Positions 517 through 14,067 are shown, numbered from the stretch's first letter. The stretch is 64,000 nt of DNA from Escherichia coli (GCF_024223415.1 NZ_CP100500.1), one strand, 5' to 3'. Program-made: numbers and translations. The notes: generated from the letters alone by a model not told the origin.

Positions 517-2016
517 TTAGCTCGCCGTTTCAGGCTTAAACACAATTTCCTGTTTTTCTTCATCTTCCTCGACGACTGGCGCAGTGCTGTGAATTTCAGC
601 AACGCGTTTGCGCACACCAAACCAGCCTATAACCAGCAGAATACCGATAATCGGCAGCGCCGCGATAGTATAAGTCCCGTTCGGGTAATCGAACGCCATC
701 AGCACAAGGACACTCAGTAAAAACAGTAATGTCAGCCAGGAAGTGAAGGGCGCGCCAGGCAGTTTAAAACTGACATCCGCTGCTTTGCCTTCTTTAATCG
801 CTTTACGCAGGCGCATCTGGCACACGATGATAAACGCCCATGAAGCGATGATTCCCAGCGACGCGAAGTTCAACACAATCTCAAATACGCGCGATGGCAC
901 CAGATAGTTGAGGAATACGCCGACGACATACACAACCAGTGTCGCCAGAATCCCGGCATACGGCACATGCTGACGACTCATTTTCGCCATAAAACTCGGT
1001 GCGGAACCGCCCATCGCCATTGAGCGCAGAATACGTCCGGTGCAGTACAGACCTGAATTCAGGCTGGAGAGGGCAGCGGTCAGCACCACAATGTTCATAA
1101 TGCTGCCGATATATGGCACACCCAGTTTAGAGAAAAACGTCACGAACGGACTTTGCCCCGCCTGATACGCGCTCCACGGCAATAACATAACCAGCAACAC
1201 CACGGAGCCGACGTAAAACAGGCCAATACGCCAAATCACACTGTTAATGGCTTTAGGCACCATGGTCTGCGGATCTTTACATTCTCCGGCAGCTGTACCC
1301 ACCATTTCAATGGAGGCAAAAGCAAACACTACGCCCTGAATCAACACCAGCGCAGGCAGCAAACCGTGGGGGAAGAAGCCGCCATTATCGGTAATTAAAT
1401 GAAAGCCAGTGGTGTTGCCATCCAGCGGCTGACCACTACCGAGGAACACTGTACCCACGACCAAAAAGGTCACAATGGCGAGCACTTTAATAAGCGCAAA
1501 CCAGAACTCCATCTCCGCAAACCATTTCACACCGATCATATTCATGGTGCCAACGATGGTAAGTGCAGCGAGCGCAAAGACCCACTGCGGCACGCCGCCA
1601 AACGCACCCCAGTAATGCATATACAGAGCGACGGCGGTAATATCAACAATCCCCGTCATCGCCCAGTTGATGAAGTACATCCAGCCAGCAACATAAGCGG
1701 CTTTCTCACCCAAAAACTCACGGGCATAAGAGACAAAACTGCCACTGGAAGGGCGGTGTAGCACCAGCTCACCCAATGCACGCAGAATAAAAAACGAAAA
1801 CAAGCCACAAATTAAATAAACCAGTGCCAGTGCTGGACCCGCCATTTGCAGTCGGGCTCCTGCACCTAAAAACAAGCCGGTGCCAATCGCGCCGCCAATG
1901 GCGATCATCTGTACCTGGCGATTGCCCATCGCTTTGTGATACCCCTCTTCGTGGGCATTAAGCCAGCGGCGTTTCGCGGCGTGTTGATCTGAAGTGTCGG
2001 TGTCGTGTTTACTCAT
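517..2016 (-). CDS. ansP: L-asparagine permease (APC-family amino acid transporter), 499 aa
   Basis: ORF 517..2067; start refined to the ATG at 2014-2016 (MSKHDTDTSDQHAAKRRW...) with GGGAG RBS upstream; multi-helix permease sequence recognised. Confidence 0.93.
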   Translation of the reverse strand: MSKHDTDTSDQHAAKRRWLNAHEEGYHKAMGNRQVQMIAIGGAIGTGLFLGAGARLQMAGPALALVYLICGLFSFFILRALGELVLHRPSSGSFVSYAREFLGEKAAYVAGWMYFINWAMTGIVDITAVALYMHYWGAFGGVPQWVFALAALTIVGTMNMIGVKWFAEMEFWFALIKVLAIVTFLVVGTVFLGSGQPLDGNTTGFHLITDNGGFFPHGLLPALVLIQGVVFAFASIEMVGTAAGECKDPQTMVPKAINSVIWRIGLFYVGSVVLLVMLLPWSAYQAGQSPFVTFFSKLGVPYIGSIMNIVVLTAALSSLNSGLYCTGRILRSMAMGGSAPSFMAKMSRQHVPYAGILATLVVYVVGVFLNYLVPSRVFEIVLNFASLGIIASWAFIIVCQMRLRKAIKEGKAADVSFKLPGAPFTSWLTLLFLLSVLVLMAFDYPNGTYTIAALPIIGILLVIGWFGVRKRVAEIHSTAPVVEEDEEKQEIVFKPETAS

Positions 2017-2282
2017 TGCTCTCCCTGATTGCTTTAATGAAAAAGTCATATAAGTTGCCATGAACAATGTTTATTCATCCTGGCGATGATAGTTATCACC
2101 ATTATTCTTTATGGGTATAAAACTATCGGCGCAGCATCCTACCCGTTATCGATAAACGATGCAAAACATCCCCTTACAATCCTGAAGGGGATTAATACAA
2201 CTGACGAAAAAATGACAAATCCTTTTGCTGGTTAACCTGTGTACTGTCCTACACTTAATCTTTAAAAGATTGTGAGGGGCAT

Positions 2283-2879
2283 ATGATTAAGGTGTATGGC
2301 GTACCCGGATGGGGCTCTACAATCAGTGAGCTGATGCTAACACTGGCTGATATTCCTTATCAGTTCGTTGATGTCAGTGGTTTTGACCACGAGGGAGCTT
2401 CACGCGAGTTATTGAAAACCCTGAACCCGTTGTGTCAGGTTCCGACACTGGCATTGGAAAATGACGAGATTATGACGGAGACAGCGGCGATTGCATTGAT
2501 GGTTCTCGATCGTCGCCCGGACCTTGCGCCACCGGTTGGGCGCGCCGAACGTCAGCAGTTTCAACGGCTATTGGTCTGGCTGGTTGCTAATGTCTATCCA
2601 ACATTCACTTTCGCCGATTACCCTGAGCGTTGGGCTCCTGACGCACCCGAACAGTTAAAGAAGAATGTTATTGAATATCGTAAATCGCTTTATATCTGGC
2701 TGAATTCACAATTGACCCCTGAACCTTATGCGTTTGGTGAGCAACTAACGCTGGTGGACTGTTATCTTTGCACTATGCGCACATGGGGCCTGGGCATGAA
2801 TGGTTTCAGGATAATGCCACGAATATCAGTGCGATTGCTGATGCTGTATGTCAGTTACCGAAATTACAAGAAGTATTAA
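2283..2879 (+). CDS. yncG: GST-like protein YncG; C-terminus apparently frameshifted (the +1 frame continues as ...GHEWFQDNATNISAIADAVCQLPKLQEVLKRNVII to a stop at 2898-2900)
   Basis: N-terminal GST fold motifs (MIKVYGVPGWGST..., CQVPTL); the in-frame tail ...RISVRLLMLYVSYRNYKKY is low-complexity whereas the +1 frame is protein-like; break maps to the CC run at 2789-2790. Confidence 0.7.
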   Translation: MIKVYGVPGWGSTISELMLTLADIPYQFVDVSGFDHEGASRELLKTLNPLCQVPTLALENDEIMTETAAIALMVLDRRPDLAPPVGRAERQQFQRLLVWLVANVYPTFTFADYPERWAPDAPEQLKKNVIEYRKSLYIWLNSQLTPEPYAFGEQLTLVDCYLCTMRTWGLGMNGFRIMPRISVRLLMLYVSYRNYKKY

Positions 2880-2974
2880 AAAGGAATGTCATTATTTGAG
2901 TGGGATACCAGAAGATTATGTTATTTATTATTCAGTAACTTTATCCACAATGATGGGCGTAATTAATTAGATTC

Positions 2975-3187
2975 ATGTTATGTTTTTTAATTTATATCAC
3001 TCTCCCTTTCATTCAGCTTGTCTATTTCATTTCCTCTGAAAAGAAACTAACTATTCACATTGTGAAGATGTTTCACTTGTTATCACAGGCATTCTATAAT
3101 CTCAAAATGTTTTTAATGATGGATATGCTCGGAGTTGGAGATACAATTAATATTAATACAAATAAAAATATCCGGCAGGTATGCTAA
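2975..3187 (+). CDS. yncH: Small hypothetical protein, 70 aa
   Basis: 70-aa ORF in the AT-rich region; matches my recollection of YncH (size and position after yncG); no function inferable. Confidence 0.55.
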   Translation: MLCFLIYITLPFIQLVYFISSEKKLTIHIVKMFHLLSQAFYNLKMFLMMDMLGVGDTININTNKNIRQVC

Positions 3188-4006
3188 AAGGATAAATGGC
3201 GTTCTCTGTATTTATTCGCAATTATCTGTAGGACAAATATGGAGAGCTTGATGAGTCAGAGCTAAAACAGCAATTGATTAATAAACATGTTGATTTATTC
3301 AAGAAAATGGATGTATTTTAAATATTGATTCTTAATATAACCTAATCAATAGATTATCACGTGAGAGCTGCACATTATTGGAGGGGCAGGGGAAAACACC
3401 ATTTTGGGAACAATGCATCAGGTACTCTTACCACTGAAGCAAGATCATCCGGGCACCAGGTGGTGGTGCAGTGCTTTGGAAATGGTCCCCTCGGGGGAGT
3501 TGTCATTATTTTCTATGCTATTTGCTTATGATATTCATCAGGTGAATTTAATAAATTCCTAATTTGAAATATCCACTATTAAGCCAGTGTTTAACGACGT
3601 TAAGATGGCAATGTGCAGATCATGTTATCAGGGTGGGGCGGTAGCGTATATTCCTTATACAAATCATCATTCATTTCAATGATTGTTATTAAATTATTTA
3701 TTGTTGTGAATAAAAAGACATTATGAATATTGGTTTAACTTTGCATATCAGGTTTTTTATTACTCGCTGTAATGTACGAGCCTGTCGTGAATAACGTCCA
3801 GAACCCATCCGTTGCGTTTGTGATTATTTTGTTGACTAAACAGACGCCCGTTTCTCTGAAGTAAAATCCCAGACTAAATCATCACATAACCATGACATTT
3901 TCTGATATTCCCCGGTAACGCCAGTTGTCGACTCACTTATTTCATCCGCCCGACATGTTGTACATGCAATATGTGCGGATTATTATTCATTTTCACGGAG
4001 GTTGCT

Positions 4007-6115
4007 ATGTCAACCGGATTACGTTTCACGCTGGAAGTGGACGGCCTGCCACCGGACGCGTTTGCGGTGGTCTCCTTTCATCTGAACCAGTCACTCTCTT
4101 CACTTTTTTCCCTCGACCTTTCTCTGGTCAGTCAGCAGTTTCTTTCCCTTGAATTTGCGCAGGTGCTGGACAAAATGGCCTACCTGACGGTATGGCAGGG
4201 CGATGACGTACAGCGCCGGGTGAAAGGTGTGGTGACCTGGTTTGAACTGGGGGAGAACGACAAAAACCAGATGCTGTACAGCATGAAGGTGTGCCCGCCG
4301 CTGTGGCGCACAGGGCTGCGCCAGAACTTCCGTATCTTCCAGAATGAGGACATCGAAAGCATCCTCGCTACGATATTGCAGGAAAACGGGGTGACCGAGT
4401 GGAGTCCGCTGTTCAGCGAGCCGCATCCTTCCCGTGAGTTTTGTGTCCAGTACGGCGAAACCGATTACGATTTCCTGTGCCGGATGGCGGCGGAGGAAGG
4501 CATCTTCTTTTATGAGGAGCACGCGCAAAAAAGTACCGACCAAAGCCTGGTCCTGTGCGATACCGTGCGTTATCTGCCGGAGTCCTTTGAGATCCCCTGG
4601 AATCCGAACACCCGTACCGAGGTAAGCACCCTCTGCATCAGCCAGTTTCGCTACAGCGCACAAATCCGCCCTTCTTCCGTGGTGACCAAAGACTACACCT
4701 TTAAACGCCCCGGCTGGGCCGGACGTTTTGACCAGGAAGGCCAGCACCAGGATTACCAGCGCACACAGTATGAAGTGTATGACTATCCCGGACGTTTCAA
4801 GGGCGCCCACGGGCAGAACTTTGCCCGCTGGCAGATGGACGGCTGGCGAAACAACGCAGAAGTGGCGCGCGGAACAAGCCGTTCGCCGGAGATATGGCCG
4901 GGACGGCGAATTGTGCTGACGGGGCATCCGCAGGCGAACCTGAACCGGGAATGGCAGGTGGTGGCAAGTGAACTGCACGGTGAGCAGCCGCAGGCGGTGC
5001 CGGGACGCAGTGGTTCAGGTACCTCGCTGAATAACCACTTTGCGGTAATCCCGGCAGACCGGACATGGCGGCCACAGCCGTTGCTGAAACCGCTGGTGGA
5101 CGGCCCGCAGAGCGCCGTCGTGACGGGACCGGCAGGCGAGGAAATCTTCTGTGATGAACATGGCCGCGTGCGGGTGAAATTTAACTGGGACCGCTATAAC
5201 CCGTCAAACCAGGACAGTTCATGCTGGATCCGTGTGGCACAGGCGTGGGCAGGCACCGGATTCGGTAACCTTGCGATACCGCGCGTGGGTCAGGAGGTGA
5301 TTGTGGACTTCCTCAACGGCGATCCGGACCAGCCGATCATTATGGGGCGCACCTACCACCAGGAAAACCGCACACCCGGCAGCCTGCCGGGAACAAAGAC
5401 GCAGATGACCATTCGTTCGAAAACCTATAAGGGCAGCGGGTTTAATGAACTGAAGTTTGACGATGCGACAGGGAAAGAACAGGTCTACATCCACGCGCAG
5501 AAGAACATGAACACCGAGGTGCTGAATAACCGCACCACGGATGTGATAAACAACCATGCTGAGACCATTGGCAACAATCAGATGATTGCGGTTACCAACA
5601 ATCAGATACAGACGGTGGGCGTTAACCAGATAGAGACGGTGGGCAGTAACCAGATCATTAACGTGGGTTCTGTTCAGGTGGAAACGATTGGACTTGTTCG
5701 TGCGCTGACCGTGGGCGTGGCGTACCAGACGACGGTAGGTGGCATTATGAACACTTCGGTGGCTCTGATGCAGTCCTCGCAGATCGGTTTGCATAAATCT
5801 TTGAGGGTCGGGCTGGGTTATGACGTCAAAGTCGGAAATAACGTTACCTTCACCGTTGGTAAAACGAAAAAGGATGATACCGGGCAGACCGCGATTTACT
5901 CCGCCGGTGAGCATCTGGAGCTCTGCTGTGGTAAGGCAAAGCTGGTGCTGACAAAGGACGGTCAAATTTTTCTCAACGGCACAAAAATTCATTTGCAGGG
6001 TAAGGAGCAGGTTAATGGTGACTCACTGTTGATTAACTGGAACTGTGCAGCCTCGAAATCCCCACCGAAGACCCCTGATGAAAAGCAGGATACGCCGGAT
6101 ATGAGAGAGTACTGA
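4007..6115 (+). CDS. vgrG: Type VI secretion spike protein VgrG, 702 aa
   Basis: ORF 3971..6115; start set at ATG 4007 (MSTGLRFTLEVDGLPPDAF...) with GGAGG RBS at 3997-4001; gp27/gp5-like core, C-terminal beta-helix octapeptide repeats (NNQMIAVT/NNQIQTVG/VNQIETVG). Confidence 0.9.
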   Translation: MSTGLRFTLEVDGLPPDAFAVVSFHLNQSLSSLFSLDLSLVSQQFLSLEFAQVLDKMAYLTVWQGDDVQRRVKGVVTWFELGENDKNQMLYSMKVCPPLWRTGLRQNFRIFQNEDIESILATILQENGVTEWSPLFSEPHPSREFCVQYGETDYDFLCRMAAEEGIFFYEEHAQKSTDQSLVLCDTVRYLPESFEIPWNPNTRTEVSTLCISQFRYSAQIRPSSVVTKDYTFKRPGWAGRFDQEGQHQDYQRTQYEVYDYPGRFKGAHGQNFARWQMDGWRNNAEVARGTSRSPEIWPGRRIVLTGHPQANLNREWQVVASELHGEQPQAVPGRSGSGTSLNNHFAVIPADRTWRPQPLLKPLVDGPQSAVVTGPAGEEIFCDEHGRVRVKFNWDRYNPSNQDSSCWIRVAQAWAGTGFGNLAIPRVGQEVIVDFLNGDPDQPIIMGRTYHQENRTPGSLPGTKTQMTIRSKTYKGSGFNELKFDDATGKEQVYIHAQKNMNTEVLNNRTTDVINNHAETIGNNQMIAVTNNQIQTVGVNQIETVGSNQIINVGSVQVETIGLVRALTVGVAYQTTVGGIMNTSVALMQSSQIGLHKSLRVGLGYDVKVGNNVTFTVGKTKKDDTGQTAIYSAGEHLELCCGKAKLVLTKDGQIFLNGTKIHLQGKEQVNGDSLLINWNCAASKSPPKTPDEKQDTPDMREY

Positions 6116-6181: not shown

Positions 6182-9100
6182 ATGAGCGGAAAACCAGCGG
6201 CGCGTCAGGGAGATATGACTCAGTATGGCGGTCCCATTGTCCAGGGTTCGGCAGGTGTAAGAATTGGCGCGCCCACCGGCGTGGCGTGCTCGGTGTGTCC
6301 GGGCGGGATGACCTCGGGCAACCCGGTAAATCCGCTGCTGGGGGCGAAGGTGCTGCCCGGCGAGACGGACCTTGCGCTGCCCGGCCCGCTGCCGTTCATT
6401 CTCTCCCGCACCTACAGCAGCTACCGGACGAAGACGCCTGCGCCGGTGGGGATTTTTGGCCCCGGCTGGAAAGCGCCTTCTGATATCCGCTTACAGCTAC
6501 ATGATGACGGACTGATACTCAACGACAACGGCGGGCGGAGCATTCACTTTGAGCCGCTGCTGCCGGGGGAGGCGGTGTACAGCCGCAGCGAGTCAATGTG
6601 GCTGGTGCGCGGTGGTAAGGCAGCGCAGCCGGACGGCCACACGCTGGCGCGGCTGTGGGGGGCGCTGCCGCCGGATATCCGGTTAAGCCCGCATCTTTAC
6701 CTGGCGACCAACAGCGCACAGGGGCCGTGGTGGATACTGGGGTGGTCAGAGCGGGTGCCGGGTGCTGAGGACGTACTGCCAGCGCCGCTGCCGCCGTACC
6801 GGGTGCTTACCGGGCTGGCAGACCGTTTCGGGCGGACGCTGACGTACCGGCGTGAGGCCGCAGGCGACCTGGCCGGGGAAATCACCGGCGTGACGGACGG
6901 TGCCGGGCGTGAGTTCCGTCTGGTACTGACCACACAGGCACAGCGGGCGGAAGAGGCCCGCACCTCTTCGCTATCTTCTTCTGACAGTTCCCGCCCTCTC
7001 TCAGCCTCAGCGTTCCCCGACACACTGCCCGGTACCGAATACGGCCCCGACAGGGGTATCCGTCTTTCAGCGGTGTGGCTGATGCACGACCCGGCATACC
7101 CGGAGAATCTGCCCGGTGCGCCACTGGCGCGGTACACGTATACGGAAGCCGGTGAACTGCTGGCGGTATATGACCGCAGCAATACGCAGGTGCGCGCTTT
7201 CACGTATGACGCGCAGCACCCGGGCCGGATGGTGGCGCACCGTTACGCGGGAAGGCCGGAGATGCGCTACCGCTACGACGATACCGGGCGGGTGGTGGAG
7301 CAGCTGAACCCGGCAGGCCTGAGTTACCGCTACCAGTATGAGCAGGACCGCATCACCGTCACGGATAGCCTGAACCGGCGTGAGGTGCTGCATACAGAAG
7401 GCGGGGCCGGGCTGAAGCGGGTGGTGAAAAAAGAACTGGCGGACGGCAGCGTCACGCACAGCGGGTATGACGCGGCAGGAAGGCTCACGGCGCAGACGGA
7501 CGCGGCGGGACGGCGGACAGAGTACGGTCTGAATGTGGTGTCCGGCGATATCACGGACATCACCACACCGGACGGGCGGGAGACGAAATTTTACTATAAC
7601 GACGGGAACCAGCTGACGGCGGTGGTGTCCCCGGACGGGCTGGAGAGCCGCCGGGCATATGATGAACCGGGCAGGCTGGTATCGGAGACATCGCGCAGCG
7701 GGGAGACAGTACGCTACCGCTACGATGATGCGTACAGTGAGTTACCGGCGACGACAACAGATGCGACGGGCAGCACCCGGCAGATGACCTGGAGCCGCTA
7801 CGGTCAGTTGCTGGCGTTCACCGACTGCTCGGGCTACCAGACCCGCTATGAATACGACCGCTTCGGCCAGATGACGGCGGTCCACCGCGAGGAAGGCATC
7901 AGCCTTTACCGCCGCTATGACAACCGTGGCCGGTTAATCTCGGTGAAAGACGCACAGGGCCATGAAACGCGGTATGAGTACAACGCCGCAGGCGACCTGA
8001 CTGCCGTCATTACCCCGGACGGCAACCGGAGCGAGACACAGTACGATGCGTGGGGAAAGGCGGTCAGCACCACGCAGGGCGGGCTGACGCGCAGTATGGA
8101 GTACGATGCTGCCGGACGTGTCATCAGCCTGACCAACGAGAACGGCAGCCGGAGTGAGTTTACCTACGATGCGCTGGACCGCCTGGTACAGCAGGGCGGC
8201 TTTGACGGGCGGACGCAGCGTTACCGTTATGACCTGACCGGAAAACTCACGCAGAGTGAAGATGAGGGGCTTGTCATCCTCTGGTACTACGATGAATCGG
8301 ACCGTATCACTCACCGCACGGTGAACGGCGAACCGGCAGAGCAGTGGCAGTATGATGGCCACGGCTGGCTGAGAGAAATCAGCCACCTGAGCGAAGGCCA
8401 CCGTGTTGCCGTCCACTATGGCTATGACGATAAAGGCCGCCTGACCGGCGAACGCCAGACGGTGGAGAACCCGGAGACGGGGGAACTGCTGTGGCAGCAT
8501 GAGACGAAACACGCATACAACGAGCAGGGGCTGGCAAACCGCGTCACGCCGGACAGCCTGCCGCCGGTGGAGTGGCTGACGTATGGCAGCGGTTACCTGG
8601 CGGGAATGAAGCTGGGCGGGACGCCGCTGGTCGAGTATACGCGGGACAGGCTGCACCGGGAGACGGTGCGCAGCTTCGGCAATAATGCATATGAACTGAC
8701 CAGCACTTACACCCCCGCAGGCCAGTTACAGAGCCAGCACCTGAACAGCCTGGTGTATGACCGTGACTACGGGTGGAATGACAACGGCGACCTGGTGCGC
8801 ATCAGCGGTCCGCGACAGACGCGGGAATACGGCTACAGCGCCACGGGCAGGCTGGAGAGTGTGCGCACCCTCGCACCGGACCTGGACATCCGCATCCCGT
8901 ATGCCACGGACCCGGCGGGCAACCGGCTGCCGGACCCGGAGCTGCACCCGGACAGTACACTCACAGTGTGGCCGGATAACCGAATCACCGAAGACGCGCA
9001 CTACCTGTACCGTTACGATGAATACGGCAGGCTGACGGAGAAGACGGACCGCATCCCGACGGGTGTGATACGGACGGACGACGAGCGGACCCACCACTAC

Positions 9101-10387
9101 CACTACGACAGCCAGCACCGCCTGGTGTTCTACACGCGGATACAGCATGAGGAGCCACTGGTCGAGAGCCGCTACCTCTACGACCCGCTGGGACGGCGAA
9201 TGGCAAAACGGGTCTGGCGGCGGGAGCGTGACCTGACGGGGTGGATGTCGCTGTCGCGTAAACCGGAGGAGACATGGTACGGGTGGGACGGCGACAGGCT
9301 GACGACGGTGCAGACTGACACCACACGTATCCAGACGGTCTACCAGCCGGGGAGCTTCACGCCGCTCATCCGTATCGAGACAGAGAACGGCGAACGGGAG
9401 AAAATGCAGCGCCGCAGCCTGGCGGAGAAGCTGCAGCAGGAAGGAAGTGAGGACGGTCACGGTGTGGTGTTCCCGGCTGAGCTGGTGAGGATGCTGGACA
9501 GGCTGGAGGAAGAAATCCGGGCAAACTGCGTGAGCAGTGAAAGCCGCCAGTGGCTTGCGCAGTGCGGGCTGACGGTGGAGCGGCTGGCGGCACAGATAGA
9601 GCCGGTTTATTTGCCTGAGCGAAAAATACATCTTTATCACTGTGACCACCGGGGCCTGCCGCTGGCGCTTATCAGTGAAGACGGCAATACGGCGTGGCGC
9701 GGGGAGTATGATGAATGGGGCAACCAGCTTAATGAAGAGAACCCGTATTACCTGCACCAGCCATACCGTCTGCCGGGGCAGCAGCATGATGAGGAATCAG
9801 GGCTGTACTATAACCGGAACCGGTACTATGACCCGCTACAGGGGAGGTATATTACACAAGACCCCATTGGGCTGGAGGGGGGATGGAACCTGTACCAATA
9901 TCCGCTGAATCCAGTGCAACACGTTGATCCATTAGGGCTTAGTACTATGATAATAGGTAACGGCCCCGTTCCTGATAATCCTTTTGGGCATGCTGCGGCG
10001 GCAAATCGATATGGATTAATGAGTTCGGGAACTGGGGATGAGATGGGAGCCTCTGTCTCTGATTATTTTAAAAAGATGCAACCCCGCAGAGATACCTGGA
10101 TTTGGATAATAGATACAACAGATGAAGAAGAACAATGTATGATGAATAAGGCAATAGACCTTAATAAAAAACTAAAAACTATTAACCTCGGGCCTCTTCC
10201 TGTTTTAAATAATTGTTTTAGCCGAACGAACATGATTTTTGAGGCGTGCGGGTTTAACAACCCCTCTATGAATACAAATGCGCCTATAAGCCTACAAGTG
10301 CTCGGTGAGCTTTATGGATATCAAAGATATATTATGCCTAAAGGTCCTTTCACTGGATTCCCATTTGAATTTCAAGAGGTAAAGTAA
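6182..10387 (+). CDS. rhsE: Full-length Rhs polymorphic toxin, 1401 aa: PAAR-like N-terminus, YD-repeat shell, DPLGL boundary motif, variable C-terminal domain
   Basis: N-terminus [23 protein letters not shown]...; many YD repeats ([17 protein letters not shown], ...); conserved core end ...[26 protein letters not shown]...VDPLGL at 9923-9940; symbol assigned by locus position (between yncH and H-rpt/pptA). Confidence 0.9.
9941..10387 (+). other. Rhs C-terminal variable (toxin) domain, 148 aa, family not recognised
   Basis: Begins immediately after DPLGL; abrupt drop in GC content relative to the rhs core; contains His and Cys residues (GHAAA, EEQCMM, NNCFS, EACGF) but no motif I can assign. 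Confidence 0.6.
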
Positions 10388-10786
10388 ATGGAAATGCTTG
10401 GGAAGATATTAGTGATAATTATTTCCATGATAATTATATCTTGTGATTATTATAATGCTGGCATGGACTATCAAGATAATATAGCCCTCGAGCAAGTCGT
10501 AACATGGGATTCTGATAATATATTCACACCTAATATCTTTGAACATAATGGAAGATGTTTTATGAAGAAAAATGAAACATGGATGTTATTAAATGGAGAT
10601 GCAACACCAAACATTAGAACAATGAGCAATAAGAAAATAGAATGCCTGGAGAAGAGTGAAGTAGAATGGGCTAGTAGGGTTTGCGACAGTATCACAGACA
10701 AGGAAAGGGAAAATCTGAAGGCATTAATATGTAGCAAACCAGCTAAATCAGTTAATACAGGCAAAAGACCAGCGTTAGGATATTGA
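10388..10786 (+). CDS. Putative Rhs immunity protein, 132 aa, predicted inner-membrane lipoprotein
   Basis: ATG directly follows the rhs TAA stop (10385-10387); N-terminus MEMLGKILVIIISMIIIS-C19-D20 = signal peptide plus lipobox-like IISC with Asp at +2; AT-rich like the toxin tip. Confidence 0.6.
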   Translation: MEMLGKILVIIISMIIISCDYYNAGMDYQDNIALEQVVTWDSDNIFTPNIFEHNGRCFMKKNETWMLLNGDATPNIRTMSNKKIECLEKSEVEWASRVCDSITDKERENLKALICSKPAKSVNTGKRPALGY

Positions 10787-10937
10787 AACCGGCACTGCAC
10801 TCTATCACTATTACAATATTCTGAGTGACTAGAGCAACTGCTCCGCCATCCGGGCTAGCAGTATGACGACGAATCCGAACTGCACTACAACTGGCACCGG
10901 TACTACAATCCGGGACAGGGACCAGGGAAAGATCACG
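10787..10937 (+). pseudogene. Vestigial orphan rhs core 3' fragment with in-frame stops
   Basis: Translation ...LRHPG*QYDDESELHYNWHRYYNPGQG aligns with the core end ...[27 protein letters not shown] of the upstream rhs (similarity also visible at DNA level); TGA and TAG stops in frame; homology ends at the intron boundary. Confidence 0.5.
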
Positions 10938-11424: not shown

Positions 11425-12725
11425 ATGAATGTGGAGCGAAGGGGCAACGTCGGGCAGTCTGCATCACAGCCCAACTGTAAACAGGAGGAGGCTGCGGGTG
11501 AACAGACAAAACCGTTTCAGGTCAGTAAATTGCATGTGGTGGAAGCGTACCGTCGGGTAAAGGCGAATGCCGGAGCTGCCGGAGTGGATAACCAGACGCT
11601 GAAAGATTTTGAGCGGGATCTGAAAGGAAATCTGTACAAAATCTGGAACAGGTTATCGTCGGGAAGCTGGATGCCGCCGCCAGTGCGTGCGGTGGAAATT
11701 CCGAAGAAGGATGGCAGTAAAAGGCTTTTAGGAATACCGACAGTAAGCGATCGAATAGCGCAGATGACGGTGCTGGTAACGTTTGAACCATTAGTGGAGC
11801 GTTATTTCCTGAATGATTCATACGGATACCGGCATGGAAAATCAGCGCTGGATGCAATAGCAGTTACCAGAAAACGTTGCTGGCAATACGACTGGTGTCT
11901 TGAGTTTGATATTAAAGGGTTATTCGATAATATCCCCCACGATTTATTACTCAGGGCAGTGGATAAACATTGCGCGGATAAATGGGTAAGACTGTATATT
12001 CGCAGGTGGCTGACAGCGCCGGTGCAGATGCCGGATGGAACACTGAAGGAAAGAAATAAAGGTACGCCACAGGGTGGAGTCATCAGTCCGGTACTGGCGA
12101 ATTTATTTCTGCACTATGTGTTTGATAAATGGCTGTCGTTACATTATCCGGAAATTCCCTGGTGTCGTTATGCAGATGATGGATTAATTCATTGTGGCAG
12201 TAAACAACAGGCAGAGGAATTACTGAATAAACTGGCAAAACGTTTTCAGGAATGTGGACTGGAATTACATCCGGAGAAAACGAAAATAGTTTACTGCAAA
12301 GACAGCTAACGACAGGCGAACCACGAAACAGTGCAGTTTGATTTTCTGGGTTATACGTTCAGGGCGAGAAGAGCACGTAATCAGCGAAGTGGAAATCTCT
12401 TTACGAGTTTCAGTCCGGCGGTGAGTAACAGTGCGCAGAAAGGCATGATCGAAAAACTCAGGAAACTGCGGCTCAGACGCAGGGTGGAGATGAGTCTCGA
12501 AGATATTGCGAAAAGGCTGAATCCGATGATATCGGGGTGGCTGAATTATTACGCGAAATACCACAAAGATATATTAATCTGACGCTGATTGCGTGGGCGA
12601 GAAAGAAATATAAAACCCTGCGGTATAGAAAGACGAAGGCGTGTCAGCTAATGGAAAGGCTGTCAAAAGAGAAGCCGGAGTTGTTTGCCCACTGGAATGC
12701 AGGACCGGAAAGCGCGTTTGCCTGA
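11425..12725 (+). pseudogene. Group II intron reverse transcriptase/maturase (IEP), disrupted by an in-frame TAA and a frameshift
   Basis: RT motifs (AGAAGVDNQTL..., GTPQGGVISPVLANLFL, RYADDGLI = YADD box) and X/maturase motifs (FDFLGYTF, ISGWLNYY); TAA at 12307-12309 interrupts the frame; C-terminal segment (12537..12725) is in a different frame; start could alternatively be the upstream ATG at 11230. Confidence 0.75.
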
Positions 12726-12728
12726 CGG

Positions 12729-12762
12729 GAGCCGTATGAAGCGAGAGTTTCACGTACGGTTC
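12729..12762 (+). ncRNA. Group II intron domain V (catalytic hairpin)
   Basis: gagccgtatgaagcgagagtttcacgtacggttc: 10-bp lower stem with AGC triad at positions 2-4, 2-nt bulge on the 3' strand, 4-bp upper stem, GNRA (GAGA) tetraloop; 4 nt after the IEP stop. Confidence 0.7.
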
Positions 12763-12945
12763 TGCGAGAGGCTGTCGGGGAGGTTCCGGTGGCCTACTCA
12801 CTTAACGCTGCTTTTTTGTACTAAATAATTCGCATTTTATGTTTAAAAATTGAGATATTCCCCATTACCTAAAGCTGTTTTTTATTGCTTATACATGATC
12901 AAATACTCCTTACATAATTAAGGAGAACAAAATGGAATTAAAAAA

Positions 12946-14067
12946 TTGATGGAACATATTTCTGTTATCCCCGATTACAGACAAGCCTGGAAAGTGGAAC
13001 ATAAATTATCGGATATTCTACTGTTGACTATTTGTGCCGTTATTTCTGGTGCAGAAGGTTGGGAAGATATAGAGGATTTTGGGGAAACACATCTCGATTT
13101 TTTGAAGCAATATGGTGATTTTGAAAATGGTATTCCTGTTCACGATACCATTGCCAGAGTTGTATCCTGTATCAGTCCTGCAAAATTTCACGAGTGCTTT
13201 ATTAACTGGATGCGTGACTGCCATTCTTCAGATGATAAAGACGTCATTGCAATTGATGGAATAACGCTCCGGCACTCTTATGATAAGAGTCGTCGCAGGG
13301 GAGCGATTCATGTCATTAGTGCGTTCTCAACAATGCACAGTCTGGTCCTCGGACAGATCAGGACGGATGAGAAATCTAATGAGATTACAGCTATTCCTGA
13401 ACTTCTTAACATGATGGATATTAAAGGAAAAATCATCACAACTGATGCGATGGGTTGCCAGAAAGATATTGCAGAAAAGATACAAAAACAGGGAGGGGAT
13501 TATTTATTCGCTGTAAAGGGAAATCAGGGGCGACTAAATAAAGCCTTTGAGGAAAAATTCCCGCTGAAAGAATTAAATAATCCAGAGCATGACAGTTACG
13601 CAATCAGTGAAAAGAGTCACGGCAGAGAAGAAATCCGTCTTCATATTGTTTACGATGTCCCTGATGAACTTATTGATTTCACGTTTGAATGGAAAGGGCT
13701 GAAGAAATTATGCGTGGCAGTCTCCTTTCGGTCCATAATAGCAGAACAAAAGAAAGAGCCAAAAATGACGGTCAGATATTATATCAGTTCTGCTGATTTA
13801 ACCGCAGAGAAGTTCGCCACAGCAATCCGAAACCACTGGCACGTGGAGAATAAGCTGCACTGGCGTCTGGACGTGGTAATGAATGAAGACGACTGCAAAA
13901 TAAGAAGAGGAAATGCAGCAGAATTATTTTCAGGGATACGGCACATTGCTATTAATATTTTGACGAATGATAAGGTATTCAAGGCAGGGTTAAGACGTAA
14001 GATGCGAAAAGCAGCCATGGACAGAAACTATCTGGCGTCAGTCCTTGCGGGGAGCGGGCTTTCGTAA
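12946..14067 (+). CDS. ydcC: H-repeat-associated protein (ISAs1-family transposase), Rhs-linked
   Basis: ORF 12946..14067 (373 aa as called from a TTG; next codon is ATG) with DDE-type transposase sequence; an upstream ATG at 12932 with AGGAG RBS (12921-12925) is out of frame because of a 6-A run at 12940-12945. Confidence 0.85.

Follow-up and report, generated by a model that had tools for sequence, protein, structure and literature searches.

The window is the whole stretch of Escherichia coli DNA that was analysed (64,000 nucleotides); all positions are counted from its first letter. The interval studied here (2900-4006) separates yncG from vgrG. Positions 2880-4010 are 100% identical to E. 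coli Combat11I9 (NZ_CP021726.1) and 96-99% identical to about 3500 further complete E. coli genomes. In the RefSeq annotation of the identical record, the gene order is ansP (minus strand), yncG, yncH, vgrG, the rhs core gene and a gene encoding a 132-aa hypothetical protein, then a decayed group II intron maturase gene, an ISAs1 transposase gene, pptA and yddH. The gene names and the boundary at 4006 given by an earlier, sequence-only reading match this annotation. yncG (2283..2899, plus strand) belongs to the glutathione S-transferase family and has only its last bases inside the interval; RefSeq notes it as 'frameshifted', i.e. a pseudogene here, and the K-12 copy is intact. yncH (2975..3187, plus strand; 70 aa, DUF5445, 29.6% GC) is annotated by RefSeq and recognized by Pfam (PF17520, E = 2.8e-39, 133 bits for a curated cut-off of 25). 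K-12 yncH is listed among the genes 'essential only by TraDIS', i.e. with few transposon insertions, in a paper that does not discuss H-NS (PMC5821084); the low insertion count may reflect small size or shielding by a bound protein.

vgrG (4007..6115, plus strand; RefSeq annotation and ORF) encodes a type VI secretion system (T6SS) spike protein, and its DNA is 88% identical to the vgrG of the Sakai main cluster. It is followed on the same strand by the gene of the rhs core protein (6182..10387, RefSeq) and by that of the 132-aa hypothetical protein (10388..10786, RefSeq), a presumed immunity protein. The succession vgrG, Rhs core and small gene, located away from the main T6SS cluster according to the annotation, is that of a T6SS auxiliary (orphan) vgrG-Rhs effector module. 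The island is closed by a frameshifted ltrA (group II intron maturase) and an ISAs1 transposase gene (ydcC), at about 11425-14067, before pptA/yddH. At about 9900-10800, GC content drops to 32-42% over the rhs 3′ tip and the 132-aa gene that follows; the example of EHEC rhsF/rhsG (PMC7618764) suggests that this region may carry an internal promoter for the toxin tip and the immunity gene. The lowest-GC stretch of the window (about 25500-27500, minimum 32%) corresponds to espR1, encoding a T3SS leucine-rich-repeat effector, and to a truncated LRR pseudogene.

The interval is strongly AT-rich, as had been noticed from the sequence: its GC content is 35.2% versus 49.3% for the window, within the lowest 3.9% of 1107-bp windows, and contrasts with the GC-rich vgrG (55.5%) and rhs (60.6%). 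It had also been described as gene-poor, with yncH only; yncH is indeed the sole RefSeq gene of the interval, but an interrupted ORF (3196-3321) has to be added. Among the roughly 50 annotated gaps of the first 59 kb, none is longer than the 819 bp that separate the yncH stop from the vgrG start. The idea of a single uniform spacer does not hold. GC content varies by segment, being 28-30% at 2900-3360, 53.5% at 3361-3502, 23% at 3503-3532 and 36-37% at 3533-4006, and the parts are yncH, a decayed ORF, a GC-normal patch and the left end of an island. The AT-richness of this gap is confirmed but, apart from the conserved block described below, the gap is unremarkable: routine AT-rich DNA in front of acquired genes, H-NS-bound in the K-12 ortholog.

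The interrupted small ORF (3196..3321, plus strand) immediately follows yncH, to whose stop it is coupled, and was found by translation. It has a Shine-Dalgarno sequence (AAGGA, 3188-3192), a start codon (ATG, 3196), an in-frame TAG (3229-3231) and a stop codon (TAA, 3319-3321). Intact versions of 41 and 49 aa are found in other E. coli (P0001, P0002, L026); L026 reads CAG at 3229 in place of TAG. All six differences from L026 are non-synonymous or stop changes and thus give no sign of constraint; the sequence looks like a decaying ORF and was treated as such. The GC-normal patch (3361..3502, 142 bp) is embedded in AT-rich DNA and occurs at one place per genome. Its ORFs have no Pfam match, and none of them is conserved, since one nucleotide (3451) is deleted in K-12. 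The hairpin to which the sequence-only reading had drawn attention (3486..3498, plus strand; TCCCC-TCG-GGGGA followed by GTTGTCATTATTTTCT) is present and is followed by a T-rich, interrupted tail (GUUGUCAUUAUUUUCU) that passes a lenient terminator scan, but it is no better than chance and has no comparative support. It has 5 bp and a free energy of about -7 kcal/mol (z-scores of -0.3 and -0.5 versus shuffles), and the scan returns one site for 1.2 in shuffles. It lies 299 nt past the yncH stop, and no 3′ end matches it at K-12 coordinates in the accessible part of the 3′-end data of PMC7815308; it is a weak terminator-like structure at best. It ends 5 nt before the start of the homology described below (3503).

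A second vgrG island adjoins cusS in many strains. By blastn, positions 3503-5538 of the window align with this cusS-locus paralog (L004 4972-6985) with 88.7% identity. The DNA at 3188-3532 is single copy and is found only in the 3575 yncH-carrying genomes (of 5426). The vgrG-rhs module therefore starts at about 3503, and its left junction is placed at 3503..3532 (plus strand). The edge of an acquired island had been proposed for the interval; such an edge exists, but only 3503-4006 belongs to the vgrG-rhs island, 2900-3502 being the yncG/yncH side (single copy in the same 3575 genomes). Variability edges are nested, at about 2213, 2897 and 3503. In B2-type strains and in a cryptic Escherichia clade, homology is lost at about 2166-2213 and a 68%-identical yncG relic is retained; in another strain type, the break is at 2897, directly after yncG. 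K-12 retains window positions 2880-3939 (97.7% identity); beyond them it lacks vgrG and the 5′ part of rhs, owing to the deletion from which the rhsE pseudogene originates. The vgrG leader is present in 3824 of the 5426 complete E. coli genomes, other cassettes occupying the same site elsewhere; this patchy distribution, the copy at the cusS locus and the alternative cassettes identify the leader as accessory DNA. A comparison of the vgrG paralogs shows a mosaic, some segments being 100% identical and others about 76-80%. The paralogous leaders share 79% overall identity versus 81% at vgrG third codon positions, which fits roughly neutral divergence.

One segment departs from this pattern. A block of about 120 bp (3533..3652, plus strand), considered from its conservation as a candidate promoter/operator module, is the most conserved piece of the interval in three independent comparisons (orthologs, paralogs, deep variants). 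It contains an AT-rich palindrome (GAATTTAATAAATTC, 3544-3558), a second palindrome (TTAACGACGTTAA, 3591-3603), a -10-like hexamer (TAAGAT, 3601-3606), a promoter-like pair on the plus strand (TTATCA-16-TATATT, 3625-3652) and a core of 37 nt (GTGCAGATCATGTTATCAGGGTGGGGCGGTAGCGTAT, 3613..3649, plus strand; GATC at 3618-3621). In the cusS paralog, identity is about 93% over 3537-3652 versus 81% at vgrG third codon positions; the other conserved stretches are shorter (3692-3746, 3818-3845, 3982-4030). Two E. coli orthologs show 0 and 1 differences over the 120 nt of the block, 11 and 8 over the 354-nt leader, and 2-3% differences in the flanks. Identity of at least 99% is found in 3300 genomes over the block versus 26 when the whole interval is compared. 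B2-type strains retain the block with 75-81% identity in surroundings that cannot be aligned; in further strain types, only the core is left (92-97% identity). Of the 5426 complete E. coli genomes, 5291 carry the block or the core; yncH (3575) and the vgrG leader (3824) are less widespread. Seven block variants from four deep lineages align almost without gaps and keep the spacing of the sub-motifs within 1 nt: the palindrome GAATTTAATAAATTC, 41-42 nt, TA(A/T)GAT, 6-7 nt and the core.

The core occurs once in the window (0 expected by chance). It is found, always in the same orientation, upstream of unlike gene sets, at least three of them T6SS sets: vgrG-rhs (window type); a small ORF, vgrG, DcrB and rhs; PAAR, vgrG and an M35 or M23 peptidase; and a series of small hypothetical genes. 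An ISEc1 element is all that lies behind it in ST131. T6SS cassettes have their first gene about 250-360 nt past the core; in the wlx type (small hypothetical genes), this distance is 27 nt. A scan of 100,044 species' genomes (one genome per species) detected the core only in Escherichia sp. E1V33 and in an E. coli-like 'Citrobacter' MAG, nine other hits being the number expected by chance; on this one-genome-per-species basis, the block is confined to Escherichia. In the literature on this locus, as far as searched, the conserved upstream block is not mentioned.

Some observations concern insertion sequences and recombination at the core. The ISAs1/ISEc1 left inverted repeat, CAGGG(A/C)AAGATYACG (L007 4093-4120; just after the core in L024 and L017), abuts the core in ST131 and lies 20 nt after it in the UPEC132 type. 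The core itself holds, at 3617-3633, AGATCATG and CAGGG, both sub-motifs of this repeat, in swapped order; the likeness may reflect a preferred insertion site or chance. The core was also considered as a tRNA-like att site or as an ISAs1 inverted repeat; both were ruled out on sequence. In strain Z1323CEC0015 (L003 2938-3060), the block is a hybrid: a 54-nt core that is 100% identical to the window type sits between B2-type flanks. Recombination thus happens inside the block, and part of its conservation could reflect gene conversion.

The AT-rich leader (3653..4006, plus strand; 36% GC) extends from the block to vgrG. Its last, ribosome-binding-site-proximal segment (3972-4006, plus strand) is conserved and includes GGA (3977-3979) and a Shine-Dalgarno sequence (GGAGG, 3997-4001). 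Promoter-like pairs are found on the plus strand of the leader at 3735-3763 (TTAACT-17-TATTAC; TTGACT in K-12) and 3959-3986 (TGTACA-16-TATTAT), and each of them is disrupted by an 8-nt indel in the paralog. The pair of the block (3625-3652) is identical in the cusS paralog and is the sole plus-strand promoter-like match in common; its -10 hexamer, TATATT, is lost in the B2-type and wlx-type variants. All four lineages retain the hexamer TA(A/T)GAT (3601-3606), whose -35 is poor. Such a hexamer without a good -35, together with a palindrome centred near -62, would fit an activator-dependent promoter. On the minus strand, a promoter-like pair (TTCACA-17-AACAAT, 3682-3710; TTCACA-17-TAACAT in the cusS paralog) would drive antisense transcription across the block. 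It had been proposed that the interval contains the vgrG-rhs promoter. In favour of this, sigma-70 polymerase binds the K-12 spacer in vitro; against it, sigma-70-like matches are not enriched (5 versus 6.1 in shuffles). The accessible part of the K-12 data of PMC7815308 gives no start site and no 3′ end in the interval.

Published binding data concern the K-12 ortholog. Positions were converted for this analysis (window = U00096.3 position minus 1,523,965; U00096.2 positions are a further 1976 lower). According to genomic SELEX, the K-12 yncH>rhsE spacer contains a site for the sigma-70 holoenzyme as well as H-NS sites, and a promoter, TTGACT-17-TATTAC, was predicted in it (PMC3946193); these hexamers map to window 3735-3763, where Combat11I9 reads TTAACT. 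The sigma-70 peak (U00096.2 1525368, PMC3946193; in vitro, low resolution) converts to about 3379, outside the island-borne part and the conserved block. A weak K-12 PhoB ChIP-seq site at 1527862, flagged as H-NS-bound according to earlier ChIP-seq (PMC10294691), corresponds to about 3897; the ortholog of its motif lies in the leader (3891-3907). At 3898-3901, inside this motif, the window has 4 T versus 5 T in K-12 and L026, which puts the half-site spacing off by one base. A weak FlhDC genomic SELEX peak of K-12 converts to about 3247. The RpoN and RpoS peaks labelled 'yncH > ydcD' were set aside: they convert to positions inside rhsE/ydcD, outside the interval. The proposal that the interval is H-NS-bound DNA is thus borne out by the literature for the K-12 ortholog only (97.7% identical), through the genomic SELEX mark and the ChIP-seq region (PMC3946193, PMC10294691). 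In EHEC, T6SS mRNAs rise in an hns mutant. For the paralogous (cusS) island, an upstream start site is reported as inactive in the wild type. In EHEC, a vgrG1 promoter swap gave no detectable VgrG1, so that its authors suspect post-transcriptional control; according to them, the activating factors are not identified (PMC13141884). Scans for the Fur, H-NS, PhoB, IHF, RcsAB, CRP and PhoP consensus sequences gave none above composition-matched shuffles; control by Fur and Dam, as in the EAEC sci1 cluster, was dropped accordingly.

The interpretation that is favoured, and considered probable, is composite: a low-GC yncG/yncH side is joined to the H-NS-silenced leader of a T6SS auxiliary module whose promoter would lie in the conserved block. 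The left part (2900-3502) would consist of yncH, the decayed small ORF, the GC-normal patch and the unsupported hairpin. From 3503, the sequence would be the 5′ end of the module (vgrG, rhs, the presumed immunity gene, then ISAs1), made up of the block of about 120 bp and a leader of about 355 nt up to the vgrG ribosome-binding site. H-NS would bind and silence this DNA in Combat11I9 as suggested by the K-12 ortholog. The block is most likely the promoter/operator region of the module, as judged from conservation only. Two candidate start sites can be proposed. One, at about 3613, would depend on the TA(A/T)GAT hexamer of all four lineages, with the AT-rich palindrome centred about 62 nt upstream; the other, at about 3659, would depend on TTATCA-16-TATATT, retained in the vgrG-type and cusS copies. 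Confidence in either specific site is much lower than in the composite interpretation. With either start, the 5′ untranslated leader would be about 350-395 nt long, leaving room for post-initiation control. A wider proposal is advanced tentatively, as a possibility: the block and the core would form an undescribed, species-wide cis element of E. coli, i.e. a fixed 'docking' position for T6SS cassettes combined with a common promoter/operator or 5′-leader signal. If so, any toxin cassette placed behind the block, at the ansP/yncG locus or beside cusS, would come under the same control, probably through a DNA- or RNA-binding factor. A short, near-universal sequence common to unlike cassettes is a concrete target for understanding how orphan T6SS islands are switched.

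The main rival explanation is that the block is a recombination anchor, a shared left arm for the exchange of T6SS cassettes that is kept similar by gene conversion. At the ansP locus, all cassette types have the block as their left border; this, the hybrid block of Z1323CEC0015, the mosaic vgrG paralogs and the ISAs1 ends that abut the core or lie 20 nt past it in two lineages all agree with such an anchor. However, 37-120 nt is short for efficient homologous exchange, and at the cusS locus the block is set back about 275 bp from the tip of the inserted DNA. Conversion also leaves unexplained the preserved spacing of sub-motifs whose intervening sequence has diverged by about half, and the 5-fold lower variability of the block relative to its flanks in close orthologs. 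An anchor is regarded as rather unlikely. Alternatively, vgrG-rhs could have no promoter of its own: transcription coming from yncG/yncH would read through into it, past the hairpin at 3486-3498, which would be a leaky terminator. yncG, yncH, vgrG and rhs are all on the plus strand, a terminator-like site does lie between yncH and the module, and the in-vitro polymerase peak (about 3379) is upstream of the hairpin. Strains devoid of yncH, or of both yncG and yncH, nevertheless keep the block before T6SS genes; the paralogous island at cusS has the same leader in a different context; and the hairpin is weak and does not exceed chance. Read-through as the sole source of transcription is quite improbable.

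Other rivals assume that part of the interval is itself expressed. The patch and the hairpin (about 3362-3505) could be an unannotated small RNA of about 140 nt with its own promoter and terminator. The K-12 sigma-70 peak falls in the patch, a weak TTGATT-18-TAGATT (3326-3355), read from the sequence, would start transcription at its beginning, and the hairpin with its T-rich tail closes it. Against this, the Rfam 15 covariance models gave no match at E <= 1 over 2000-5000 on both strands, the fold of the patch is not unusual (z-score of -0.32 versus shuffles), the terminator is weak, strain variation is the same as in the flanks, including the 1-nt indel, and the accessible part of the K-12 3′-end study (PMC7815308) gives no 3′ end there. 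Such an RNA is very improbable. Expression of the block or core, either as the 5′ end of a small RNA or as a micro-ORF (MAMCRSCYQGGAVAYIPYTNHHSFQ, 3605-3682) encoding a leader peptide, is the least probable of the explanations considered. An in-frame start codon and a CR(S/L)(C/R)YQG.AVA(Y/F) frame are readable in four lineages, and some core substitutions are synonymous in that frame. But the micro-ORF has no upstream Shine-Dalgarno sequence, a 1-nt insertion in the paralog removes its first ATG, and about half of the changes are non-synonymous. The block and core match nothing in Pfam or Rfam. Single-sequence folds of the block, on both strands, are not unusual (z-scores of 0.3-0.7), and RNAalifold on the seven block variants gives -6.4 kcal/mol, with neither covariation nor compensatory pairs. 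The micro-ORF in the core was rejected, being unsupported by the Pfam search and by the substitution pattern.

The composite interpretation, an H-NS-silenced leader with a promoter in the conserved block, can be compared with known systems. The locus resembles other acquired E. coli DNA subject to H-NS (xenogeneic) silencing, including the T6SS of EHEC: it has low GC content beside GC-normal genes, it is patchily distributed among strains, and H-NS binding has been published for its K-12 ortholog. It differs from typical H-NS targets by the GC-rich 3′ half of the 37-nt core, its best conserved segment. As with h3R, the hcp3-vgrG3 intergenic region of the EHEC main T6SS cluster, vgrG would have a regulatory upstream region of its own; h3R has a terminator-like hairpin and a predicted promoter, and its 5′ UTR restricts the production of VgrG (PMC13141884). 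Unlike h3R, which is about 210 bp long and GC-normal, the leader described here is about 500 bp long and AT-rich, and homology between the two starts only at window 3996, with the ribosome-binding site. A search of the Sakai main T6SS cluster allowing up to 3 mismatches finds no copy of the core, and nothing ties the core to the main cluster. The orphan vgrG islands of Pseudomonas aeruginosa have RpoN/Sfa2 promoters (PMC8855297) and are under RsmA control (as cited in PMC13141884). Both systems have scattered vgrG-effector islands with shared upstream control elements, the element found here being a candidate recognized from its sequence; unlike in P. aeruginosa, no sigma-54 -24/-12 motif is readable by inspection in the block. 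Lastly, the locus is the same as that of a known Rhs element of E. coli (K-12 RhsE, with vgr genes and H-rpt/ISAs1), and an ISAs1 element closes the island. The vgrG-rhs pair is intact in the window, whereas the K-12 RhsE locus is deleted for vgrG and the 5′ part of rhs.
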